Source of the DNA: Candidatus Hydrogenedentota bacterium
GTDB taxonomy: Bacteria; Hydrogenedentota; Hydrogenedentia; Hydrogenedentales; SLHB01
Assembly (NCBI GenBank): GCA_045863335.1
Contig: BTVY01000003.1
Span: 32,001-96,000 of the forward strand
Length of the DNA: 64,000 nucleotides
Direction: 5' to 3'
Under the pieces are notes generated by a model, which searched no databases, was not told the DNA's origin, and saw only the letters and a program-made list of their open reading frames with translations. This document shows, in pieces, positions 9,370 through 10,996 of this stretch. Positions within the stretch are counted from its first letter, which is position 1. Each line of letters starts with the position of its first letter. The translations under genes and the position numbers were made by a program.

Positions 9370-9530
9370 TCAGTTGAACCGATGCGCGTGGGCCAAGGGA
9401 AGCACGGTGCAAATCCGTCGCAGACGCGCTGCTGTAACCGGCGACGAAAGCCGCAAACCGCCACCATTCGGGGGGATGGGAAGGCGCGGCGAATAGAACG
9501 ACCCGGAAGCCAGAAGACCTGCCCACACGT
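9370..9530 (+). promoter_or_regulatory. Cobalamin riboswitch (copy 1)
   Basis: AAGGGAA-CGGTG-AAATCCG, CTGTAAC, GCCAC..GGGAAGG and B12 box GCCAGAAGACCTGCC; boundaries approximate. Confidence 0.92.
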
Positions 9531-9677
9531 GATGAATGTGTGCGATGACTTCGCGAAACGGTCGTGGCATGATGCGGATCTCTTCAGTTAAGGGAGGGAT
9601 CCCACCCACCCAGGCCTGCATTTCCACCCGTTTCCGAAGACGTTGCTTGCGTGAACTCCGTCCATGGATTTTTGTCT

Positions 9678-9780
9678 ATGGACGGTATGGACATCATGGA
9701 CGATATGGACGGGGAGCCCTGTAAGGACTGCGCTCGAGGTGTCTTTGGTCCATCGCGTCCATACAGTCCACAGCGTCCAT
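9678..9780. repeat. Inverted array of 9-bp-period ATGGAC / GTCCA(T/C) units (REP-like hairpin)
   Basis: ATGGAC at 9678, 9687, 9696, 9705; GTCCAY at 9748, 9757, 9766, 9775. Confidence 0.85.
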
Positions 9781-9824
9781 AACTCCGCGCGATCGCTCGC
9801 GCGAAAGGAGGTGACCCGGCACAA

Positions 9825-9980
9825 ATCGTTTTTGTCCGTTGTGCAAGGGAAGTACGGTGTGAAGCCGTCGCAGTCCCGCTGCTGTAACCGGGGACGAACG
9901 CCGCAACGATAGCCACTGTCCAAGAGGATGGGAAGGCGCGGCGCGAGAGGGATCCGGGAGCCAGAAGACCTGCCATCGGG
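9825..9980 (+). promoter_or_regulatory. Cobalamin riboswitch (copy 2)
   Basis: AAGGGAA-CGGTG-GAAGCCG, CTGTAAC, GCCACTG..GGGAAGG and GCCAGAAGACCTGCC; boundaries approximate. Confidence 0.92.
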
Positions 9981-10111
9981 CGATTGTTCTTGCGGCAACT
10001 TCGAGGAAAAGTTGCAGCGGGAAACGCGAGTTTCGCCCTTTCCTGCCTACTTTTCCGCGAGAACGTGAAAGTAAATCATTCGCGCGTAAGGTCGCGCAGG
10101 AAGGAAACTCC

Positions 10112-10996
10112 ATGAGAAAGTCCACTCAAACGGTACGCGCCGAATCGCGTGTTCCTCACCATTCAGGGGGTAACGAGAGCGCCGCCTTCACGCTTATCGA
10201 ACTTCTTGTCGTCATCGCCATTATCGGCATTCTCGCCGCGTTGCTCTTGCCCGCGTTGAGCCGGGCCCGCATGAAGGCCCGTTCCATGCAGTGTGTGAAC
10301 AATCTTCGCCAATTGTATCTCGCCAACACCATGTACGCGAACGAGAACAACGGCCGCTATTGTCCGGCGGCGCCGGATATCAACGAAGGATTCGGGGGGA
10401 CGATTCGCTGGCACGGCGTTCGCGAGACCGCCAGCCCGGATTCCGACTTCGACCCGAAGAAAGGGCCGCTGGCGGAGTATCTGCCGGATGGACGCGTGAA
10501 GGAATGTCCCGTGTTCACGGAGTTCCGGAAGCAGGGCGAAGTGCCGAATGCTTTTGAGTCGGGCACCGGCGGCTACGGGTACAACGCCTCGTACATCGGC
10601 GGCACATACTATGAAAACGATTATCTCACGGCGCCCAAAAAGACCACGCCGGACGTGCGCGTCTTCGACCCGGCCAACACGATCATGTTTGCGGACGCGG
10701 CCATGCCGCAGGATGGGTACATCGTCGAGTATGGGTTTCTGGAACCACCGTATTTCGTTACCAACGACGCGCCCGCCGGAAACCCCGCGTGGGGCTTCGC
10801 CTCGCCCAGCATCCATTTCCGGCACGAGTTTCGCGCGAATGTGGTCTGGTGCGATGGGCACGTGACCAGCGAACGTTTTGGTTGGGCGCCGGACTCGCCG
10901 AACATCTTCGGTGGCGAGAATCAGCGCTGGGGTGTGGGCTGGTTCGGCCCCAAAGACAATTCGCTCTTTGATTGCCGGTTTACCGGACAGCTTTAG
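10112..10996 (+). CDS. Prepilin-type N-terminal cleavage/methylation protein (DUF1559-like, H-X9-DG C-terminus)
   Basis: [33 protein letters not shown]-terminal [14 protein letters not shown]. Confidence 0.9.

Follow-up and report, generated by a model that had tools for sequence, protein, structure and literature searches.

Within a 64-kb stretch of contig BTVY01000003.1 from Candidatus Hydrogenedentota bacterium (the window, meaning the whole stretch of DNA analysed), two complete cobalamin riboswitches stand one after the other in the leader of a gene for a prepilin-type protein, here called P0001. A riboswitch is a built-in functional label, and in this case it is attached to a protein family without known function. 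A role of P0001 in corrinoid acquisition is well supported, and the best-supported form of that role is a pilin-like component of a B12-scavenging system, working with capture proteins of the BtuH, the BtuJ and possibly the propeller kind. We consider it probable, with some reserve, that the locus is a corrinoid-repressed unit and that the P0001 subfamily belongs to the B12 regulon of Hydrogenedentota and Planctomycetota, alongside surface or periplasmic B12-capture proteins. The conserved B12 riboswitch, the operon partners related to B12 binders and the fusions between such partners and the pilin-like protein together make corrinoid acquisition a concrete and testable hypothesis.

Tandem cobalamin riboswitches precede a prepilin-type gene

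Rfam was run over the whole window at the gathering threshold, which for RF00174 is 31.5 bits with a model of 189 positions. Both aptamers scored above this threshold and were untruncated, and the window contained no further riboswitch match, the one other Rfam match being a tRNA. Their starts lie 450 nt apart (repeat families D1, D2, D5 and D7), in agreement with the initial annotation, which had described two complete B12 aptamers about 450 bp apart. The principal elements are as follows.

9334-9362, + strand: promoter-like site TTGACT-17 nt-TATACT, sigma-70-like, with 10 of 12 consensus matches, 10 nt 5′ of aptamer 1
9373-9540, + strand: cobalamin riboswitch aptamer 1 (Rfam RF00174, 90.9 bits, E = 3.4e-21, model positions 1-189 of 189)
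9823-9991, + strand: cobalamin riboswitch aptamer 2 (Rfam RF00174, 95.6 bits, E = 1.5e-22, model positions 1-189 of 189)
10112-10996, + strand: gene of P0001, a prepilin-type H-X9-DG/DUF1559-like protein of 294 aa (motifs, homologues and model)

The promoter-like site, the aptamers and the start codon at 10112 are all on the + strand, i.e. the aptamers lie in the 5′ leader of the pilin-like gene. The promoter-like site, called by consensus match only, was unique on both strands of the region 9100-11200 (mean of 0.5 in shuffled sequence), the scan of this region found none between the aptamers, and its hexamers are kept in two relatives, L001 and L002, whose pilin-like proteins are 94% and 83% identical to P0001, respectively. 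It had also been stated that no credible open reading frame (ORF) lies between the aptamers, and this was upheld: the spacer-region ORFs 9325-9591, 9536-9724 and 9664-9912 gave no Pfam match, and the spacer carries a large deletion in L002, indicating that no conserved ORF is present there, so these small ORFs were rejected as genes.

The riboswitch is linked to the pilin-like gene in two phyla

Related loci (L001-L080) were taken as the best 80 of 542 related stretches, with one genome per species; they come from Hydrogenedentota and Planctomycetota, their pilin-like proteins are 43-94% identical to P0001, and all 80 were scanned with Rfam. An RF00174 riboswitch was found upstream of the pilin-like gene and on the same strand in 57 of the 80 loci. 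In the remaining 23 the available sequence stops within the gene that opens the same-strand chain, or at most about 520 nt ahead of that gene, and absence of the riboswitch can therefore not be judged in any of them. The linkage extends to all eight of the loci L073-L080 (titled Phycisphaerae, Pirellulales and Planctomycetaceae, and one "uncultured bacterium"), though their proteins are 43-51% identical. Arrangement of the 57 loci falls into 1) a lone-gene layout, seen in 16 loci, with the riboswitch 120-310 nt 5′ of the pilin-like gene as in the window, and 2) an operon layout, seen in 41 loci, with the riboswitch 1.6-3.7 kb upstream and other genes in between. These observations support the P0001 gene as a genuine, conserved cobalamin-riboswitch target across two phyla. 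The initial annotation had called the gene a lone one, which is right for the window, where it stands before a convergent YkuD gene, but not for most relatives, in which it closes a longer operon headed by the riboswitch.

The survey of riboswitch-pilin linkage bears on another explanation, already foreseen in the initial annotation, according to which the real targets were lost and the riboswitches now front an unrelated pilin-like gene as an incidental neighbour, by vestigial control without adaptive meaning. The partner genes of most relatives are absent here, and the inter-aptamer sequence resembles the leftover of a duplicated leader (repeats D6, D7 and D9, see below). However, the riboswitch-led unit has the pilin-like gene as its constant element in 57 loci of two phyla and down to 43% identity, the riboswitch stands directly before it in sixteen other loci, and P0001 itself is strongly conserved. 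Synteny thus favours a true link and, because that link is conserved, we regard control by accident as very improbable.

The window holds a second DUF1559-type gene (51354-52604, − strand), in front of which the Rfam scan of the whole window placed no riboswitch, and whose product has nothing in common with P0001 beyond the N-terminal 110 residues and the DG-H region. It lies beside genes for a LacI-family regulator (52573-53634) and a sulfatase (53779-55317), neighbours that fit the idea of different paralogues accompanying different nutrient-use genes.

Operon partners are related to B12-binding proteins

The genes between the riboswitch and the pilin-like gene follow two orders. In loci of the Planctomycetota type the riboswitch is followed by a DUF4465 protein, then by one of about 310-380 aa and finally by the pilin-like gene; the DUF4465 domain was recognized in all five proteins scanned from the position directly behind the riboswitch (E = 1e-47 to 1e-56), and the one from L074 carries a PEP-CTERM tail according to Pfam. 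The accessible text of PMC13398666 reports that divergent DUF4465 domains share a B12-binding function and that a protein of the planctomycete Mucisphaera was among those chosen for testing. The gene directly before the pilin-like gene in this type of locus was related to the BtuH-like domain (hhalign probability 97.6%, E = 3e-12). In loci of the Hydrogenedentota type the riboswitch is often followed by a protein of about 360 aa (c1), after which come one of about 700 aa and the pilin-like gene. A profile of 12 sequences of the ~700-aa protein matched the BtuH2 B12-binding domain 7BIZ_A (E = 5.3e-15, profile positions 16-271) and the BtuG1 H-domain entry 8BLW_B (E = 1e-16), these structures being described, in the accessible parts of PMC8941943 and PMC10404256, as BtuH2 (PDB 7BIZ) and BtuG1 with its H-domain (PDB 8BLW). 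By these profile matches the ~700-aa partner is assigned to the BtuH family. The comparisons support the operon partners as homologues of the experimentally shown B12 binders BtuH and DUF4465/BtuJ, and the corrinoid-capture proteins are likelier to be these partners than the pilin-like protein.

The nature of c1 is less clear-cut. It could not be shown to be a BtuG, and no relation to DUF4465 was seen; only one of 13 members had a Pfam match, to an unrelated dockerin domain. The sole PDB sequence match was a weak one to the YVTN beta-propeller 1L0Q (E = 6.9e-6), and its look-alikes include NHL-repeat and PEP-CTERM families (at 0.90-0.92), which we take as a lead only. It is possibly a beta-propeller. 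The Pfam scans of proteins from the window and the loci, which covered representatives and not every ORF, found no TonB-dependent receptor, Plug, ABC transporter or BtuF-type domain; in particular, no TonB_dep_Rec or Plug match that would place a BtuB in the riboswitch-controlled unit was found among the proteins scanned.

The two proteins joined in one reading frame

Long ORFs of 552-1085 aa running into the pilin-like part were found in 20 loci, and in 19 of these the N-terminal part showed homology (E <= 5e-54) to the BtuH-like protein that L013 encodes separately. The fusions share one layout, in which the BtuH-like part is followed by a hydrophobic helix and by a basic linker, about 8-25 residues long, that leads into the pilin with its G/FTLIELL site (the slash marking the point of cleavage). 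The BtuH-like part measures 460-800 aa, so that an entire protein occupies the position of the prepilin "leader"; we know of no described prepilin with a whole-protein leader. Examples are L004:2796-5807, L008:2841-5822 and L035:2580-5837, with 16 more loci, and long forms were also present among independently predicted proteins (P0122 of 859 aa, P0124 of 983 aa and another of 906 aa). The long ORF of L055 had no homology to the L013 BtuH-like protein and is probably an over-extended ORF, and it was not counted as a fusion. In 23 loci the BtuH-like and pilin-like genes are separate.

Prepilin peptidase acts on the cytoplasmic side of the membrane. The predicted topology of the fusions would be coherent with this, with the first helix running from outside to inside, the pilin helix from inside to outside, and the cleavage site in a cytoplasmic loop. 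The fusions argue that the BtuH-like and pilin-like proteins act together in fixed proportion. Complex prediction for the BtuH-like (residues 38-690) and pilin-like (residues 35-281) proteins of L013 gave a score of 0.00, which counts neither for nor against binding.

The same partners could be read in another way, with P0001 as a cargo-specific pseudopilin in a type II secretion-like process that exports or mounts the binders of the BtuH, BtuJ and propeller types and carries no vitamin inward. In-frame fusions would supply cargo and pseudopilin in a 1:1 ratio, the signal-peptide proteins of the same operons have PEP-CTERM-like C-termini (a Pfam match in the DUF4465 protein of L074, and tails of the form "VP.P + helix + basic"), and NCBIfam gave weak, N-terminal-only matches of P0001 to pseudopilins of the GspG/GspH type. 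On the other hand, the lone-gene loci have no co-regulated cargo gene at the site, and PEP-CTERM proteins are thought to use an exosortase and not type II secretion. Export or display of the binders is in our judgement improbable as the role of P0001; it is one of three candidate roles within a B12-scavenging system, next to a short-filament subunit that would relay the vitamin inward and a membrane-tethered periplasmic binder.

P0001 is a pilin-like protein whose head has no fold match in the PDB

The N-terminus of P0001 matched the prepilin N-terminal methylation motif PF07963 (27.9 bits against a cut-off of 21.2, E = 1.5e-6) and TIGR02532 (25.5 bits against a cut-off of 16.3, E = 7.6e-6), and E30, which corresponds to Glu5 of the mature pilin, was invariant in 131 sequences. 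The match to DUF1559 (PF07596) was weak and sub-threshold (22.4 bits against 23.3), covering 28 residues (51-78) and the first 28 model positions; PF07596 is annotated in many close homologues of P0001 and in 23-30% of the members of look-alike clusters. An H-X9-DG string is present (H238, D248 and G249), with H238, D248 and H250 nearly invariant. No NCBIfam H-X9-DG model was among the matches listed for P0001 at E <= 0.01 (the family model is presumably TIGR04294), so the H-X9-DG membership of P0001 follows from the motif only. Consequently, of the DUF1559/H-X9-DG identity given in the initial annotation, the prepilin and H-X9-DG motifs were recovered, while the DUF1559 match falls just below its cut-off.

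All 120 homologues listed were 60-95% identical to P0001, those with a taxon name were from Hydrogenedentota, and homologues carry Joint Genome Institute names of the DUF1559/H-X9-DG kind. Profile searches returned 424 cluster representatives at E <= 1e-30 for the P0001 subfamily and 335,218 at E <= 0.001 for the wider pilin/DUF1559 superfamily.

An AlphaFold2 model from a 131-sequence alignment (predicted local distance difference test, pLDDT, of 92.8; predicted template modelling score of 0.86) comprised a 51-residue alpha-1 helix (residues 28-78) and a beta-rich head; it replaced an unusable model from a shallow alignment of 25 sequences (pLDDT of 51.9). As far as a predicted structure can, this confirms the pilin-like nature of P0001. 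In Foldseek searches against the PDB the head had no match at E <= 0.001 and the helix alone matched type IV pilins (E > 0.1), and a sequence-profile search of the PDB with P0001 matched pilin N-termini alone. The head had also been considered as a periplasmic-binding-protein fold, which was left unsupported, no such match having been returned by Foldseek from the PDB. A gene for a T2SSE-family ATPase was identified in the window (26032-27126), and no prepilin peptidase or platform gene was identified in the 64 kb.

These features also bear on a model without a filament, in which the helix is merely an anchor and the head binds corrinoid in the periplasm as an analogue of BtuF and hands it to an inner-membrane transporter. 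That the gene can stand alone behind the riboswitch, as in 16 of the 57 loci, would suit a component dedicated to binding; the large head, of about 215 aa, is strongly conserved, and at many positions its aromatic, His and Asp residues are invariant; and the Pfam short name of DUF1559 is SBP_bac_10, which we read as an allusion to solute-binding proteins. Nevertheless, neither periplasmic binding proteins nor B12 binders of any kind were matched in the fold search, P0001 keeps the complete prepilin motif with Glu5 (E30), which is typical of proteins that enter filaments, and no ABC transporter adjoins the gene in the loci scanned. Such a tethered binder is in our judgement doubtful, and a pilin-like partner of separate capture proteins is preferred.

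Fine structure of the leader

Between and behind the aptamers the following elements were recognized.

9542-9646, + strand: long hairpin, presumed expression platform 1, holding CTTCGCGAAACGG/CCGTTTCCGAAG (fold, conserved in L001 and L002)
9677-9781, + strand: inverted array of ATGGAC/GTCCAT repeats with 9-nt spacing and 34-nt arms (repeats D3, D4 and I1; long-hairpin fold)
9783-9815, + strand: GC-rich hairpin and Shine-Dalgarno (SD)-like AAAGGAGGTGA (repeats D6 and D9)
9992-10111, + strand: expression platform 2 (hairpin at about 9995-10016, TCGAGGAAAAGT/ACTTTTCCGCGA pairing, anti-SD/SD helix)

Each aptamer had been said to be followed by a candidate pairing, and both pairings reappeared, TCGAGGAAAAGT/ACTTTTCCGCGA as the inverted repeat I11 and CTTCGCGAAACGG/CCGTTTCCGAAG in the minimum-energy as well as the centroid fold of the spacer (spacer z-score of −4.67). 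In the fold of platform 2 the anti-SD TTTCCTGCCT (10039-10048) pairs with the SD AGGAAGGAAA (10098-10107) and sequesters it (repeats I10, I11 and I20); in L002 this 5′ strand forms a helix with another SD-containing 3′ strand (z-score of −4.93). The occurrence of SD-sequestering helices in both the window and L002 supports control at the level of translation, and platform 2 can, judging from these predicted folds, sequester the ribosome-binding site. For platform 1, no T-run follows it and a terminator scan of 9100-11200 found no terminator on the + strand, so action of switch 1 via intrinsic termination was dropped.

The two aptamers are 70.7% identical to each other, and aptamer 1 shares 94.6% identity with the first aptamer of L001 and 86.9% with that of L002. 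Similarity was also noticed beyond the aptamers. The first 18 nt 3′ of each are alike, the start of platform 1 being a diverged copy of that of platform 2 (D7). A near-perfect SD, AAAGGAGGTGA (9805-9815), lies directly 5′ of aptamer 2 with no ATG, GTG or TTG at ribosome-binding distance; its core AAAGGAGGT is identical in the window, L001 and L002, and the segment 9784-9808, ending in AAAGGAGGTGA, repeats the stretch directly 5′ of the pilin start codon (D6 and D9). The whole leader, i.e. aptamer, platform and ribosome-binding site, therefore seems to have been duplicated, and the orphan SD before aptamer 2 is probably the ribosome-binding site left from the duplicated first leader. Since L001 and L002 have kept the tandem arrangement together with the promoter and the two platforms, the doublet is not recent. 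A separate, younger doublet was observed in L030 (1242-1411 and 1523-1723, copies 87.4% identical), where it precedes an operon-type locus.

In the array, ATGGAC occurs in three or four copies, one every 9 nt, facing GTCCAT at the same period. L001 has the array, but L002 has lost most of it, and on account of this loss it is probably dispensable.

Proposed mechanism

We propose that a single promoter would drive the two riboswitches in series and then the one prepilin-type gene. When corrinoid is scarce, both switches would be open and P0001 would be made; prepilin peptidase would cut it at G/FTLIELL on the cytoplasmic face of the membrane, and the mature protein would either remain anchored by its alpha-1 helix or enter a short type-IV filament (pseudopilus). 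There it may link corrinoid from proteins of the BtuH, BtuJ and propeller types to the periplasm and the inner membrane. When corrinoid is plentiful, switch 1 would act early and switch 2 would block translation, and two independent OFF switches would give a steeper and tighter shut-off.

Several points weigh against this reading. The initial annotation had taken the pilin-like protein for a corrinoid-capture subunit and had deduced uptake through a pilus or pseudopilus rather than BtuB; of this, the part in corrinoid acquisition is supported, and the replacement of BtuB is hypothetical. Binding of corrinoid by P0001 itself and assembly into a filament are putative, and with a head that has no fold match in the PDB the structure gives no hint of function or ligand. 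Searches of the 64-kb window by tblastn with the partner proteins found no BtuH-like, DUF4465 or propeller-type partner gene; for this genome the partnership is thus assumed, the partner genes of this lineage presumably sitting elsewhere in the genome. Riboswitch 1 has neither a recognizable terminator nor an ORF to control, and its contribution is assumed from published doublets. As to breadth, the linkage was established from the best 80 of the 542 stretches, and the Pfam scans of neighbours covered cluster representatives, so that a btuB elsewhere in these genomes is possible.

A wider proposal may be built on the same data. The DUF1559/H-X9-DG proteins, of which a single genome of the Planctomycetota or their allies has hundreds, might be substrate-specific modules of a type-IV-filament nutrient importer, doing work that falls to TonB-dependent transporters in other bacteria; the P0001 subfamily would then be the corrinoid module, which receives B12 from BtuH/BtuJ-type proteins, sometimes still fused to it and released by prepilin peptidase, and carries it inward. 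This proposal is speculative and we consider it rather unlikely as it stands.

Comparison with known systems

Tandem riboswitches of this class have precedents. In the accessible text of Sherlock et al. (2022, PMC9481103), the adenosylcobalamin (AdoCbl) class is among those with "multiple expression platforms, pseudo-cooperative", with 26 AdoCbl doublets, and a sharper response is the published reading of riboswitch doublets (PMC9481103). As in the published doublets, the leader described here has two full aptamers of one class, with a separate platform sequence behind each, that of the first being a presumed one. It differs from them in that 1) platform 1 has no recognizable terminator, 2) the duplicated unit seems to include a ribosome-binding site, and 3) the controlled gene is pilin-like, the genes controlled by the published doublets not being named in the accessible text of PMC9481103.

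The loci also resemble the B12 loci of Bacteroides (BtuB-BtuG with BtuH and BtuJ/DUF4465), which are riboswitch-led and encode extracytoplasmic proteins of the BtuH and DUF4465 families, as the accessible parts of PMC8941943, PMC10404256 and PMC13398666 describe; the relatives studied here likewise encode a possible beta-propeller protein. In contrast to Bacteroides, no BtuB-type TonB-dependent transporter or btuFCD was found in the scanned loci of the relatives, the anchors are C-terminal PEP-CTERM-like helices instead of N-terminal lipoprotein signals, and the constant partner is a prepilin-type protein, the words "pilin" and "DUF1559" being absent from the accessible text of PMC13398666.

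With type IV pilins and type II pseudopilins P0001 shares the G/FTLIELL motif with Glu5 and an alpha-1 helix of about 50 residues, whereas its head matches no solved pilin or pseudopilin, no assembly genes adjoin its gene, and 19 relatives have the whole 460-800-aa protein as a leader. With the DUF1559/H-X9-DG proteins of Planctomycetota, Verrucomicrobiota and their relatives it has in common the prepilin N-terminus, the DUF1559 start and the H-X9-DG string; the P0001 subfamily is set apart from this wider family by its tight conservation (60-95% among the 120 homologues listed) and its linkage to cobalamin riboswitches.

Riboswitch doublets, and the BtuH and DUF4465 families from Bacteroides, are already known. 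The DUF1559 family as a whole has no known function, and none of the papers listed for DUF1559 concerns B12, judging from titles and the openings of abstracts; a link between a cobalamin riboswitch and a prepilin-type or DUF1559 protein, or the operons and fusions described above, was not found in open-access papers and bioRxiv, supplements aside. There is a real, if unproven, chance that the locus reveals a new uptake route. It opens the question of how Hydrogenedentota and Planctomycetota move large nutrients across their envelopes, and it extends the B12-binder families BtuH and DUF4465 from gut Bacteroides to environmental phyla, with another logic of anchoring and partners.

Neighbouring genes and other observations

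The gene that converges on the P0001 gene is as follows.

11022-11807, − strand: gene of a YkuD L,D-transpeptidase, convergent to the P0001 gene (Pfam)

A YkuD gene convergent to the pilin-like gene was found in the window and in 10 loci (L001, L002, L004, L012, L016, L022, L026, L028, L037 and L039), among them loci of both the lone-gene and the operon types; the window, L002 and L026 copies were identified by Pfam and the rest by BLAST clustering. The best NCBIfam match was the L,D-carboxypeptidase ElsL, below the cut-off.

On the 3′ side of the pilin-like gene, 39 of the 58 listed same-strand ORFs were scanned with Pfam, and these too gave no TonB-dependent receptor, Plug, ABC transporter or BtuF-type match. 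A ComF-like gene lies there, on the same strand, in six loci of the Planctomycetota type (L071:2835-3593, L073:5820-6581, L074:5791-6546, L076:5791-6579, L078:5803-6639 and L079:5809-6597); Pfam identified a double zinc ribbon and a phosphoribosyltransferase domain in the L071 and L073 copies, and the other four were assigned by BLAST clustering. It could be a member of the operon or a case of shared synteny. Proteins of the URO-D family are encoded in the same position and orientation in L005 (5050-6216) and L011 (3788-5149). The URO-D family also includes partners of corrinoid-dependent methyltransferases, and these neighbours may be a further link to B12. An Acido-Lenti-1 RNA was found 3′ of the pilin-like gene in L049 (6038-6083, − strand; 50.4 bits, cut-off 37).

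On the 5′ side of the riboswitch region, a protein of about 660-770 aa without Pfam match is encoded in the window (668-2968, + strand) and in six loci, with copies at L005:1349-3610, L007:115-2103 and L010:643-2925; the window and L005 copies are 41% identical. The arrangement is one of shared synteny.

Proteins 60-79% identical to P0001 were also found in loci titled Nitrospiraceae, Nitrospirales, Bathyarchaeia, Rhodothermaeota and FCB group, including L005, L006, L008, L011, L014, L016, L017, L021, L022 and L028. These are probably mislabelled contigs or mis-binned contigs of metagenome-assembled genomes.

Elsewhere in the window, the region 39249-43428 contains a Cas9 gene (HNH, RuvC-III and the Cas9 alpha-helical lobe) followed by cas1, adjoined by a tRNA at 38971-39042, and looks like a type II CRISPR-Cas locus.

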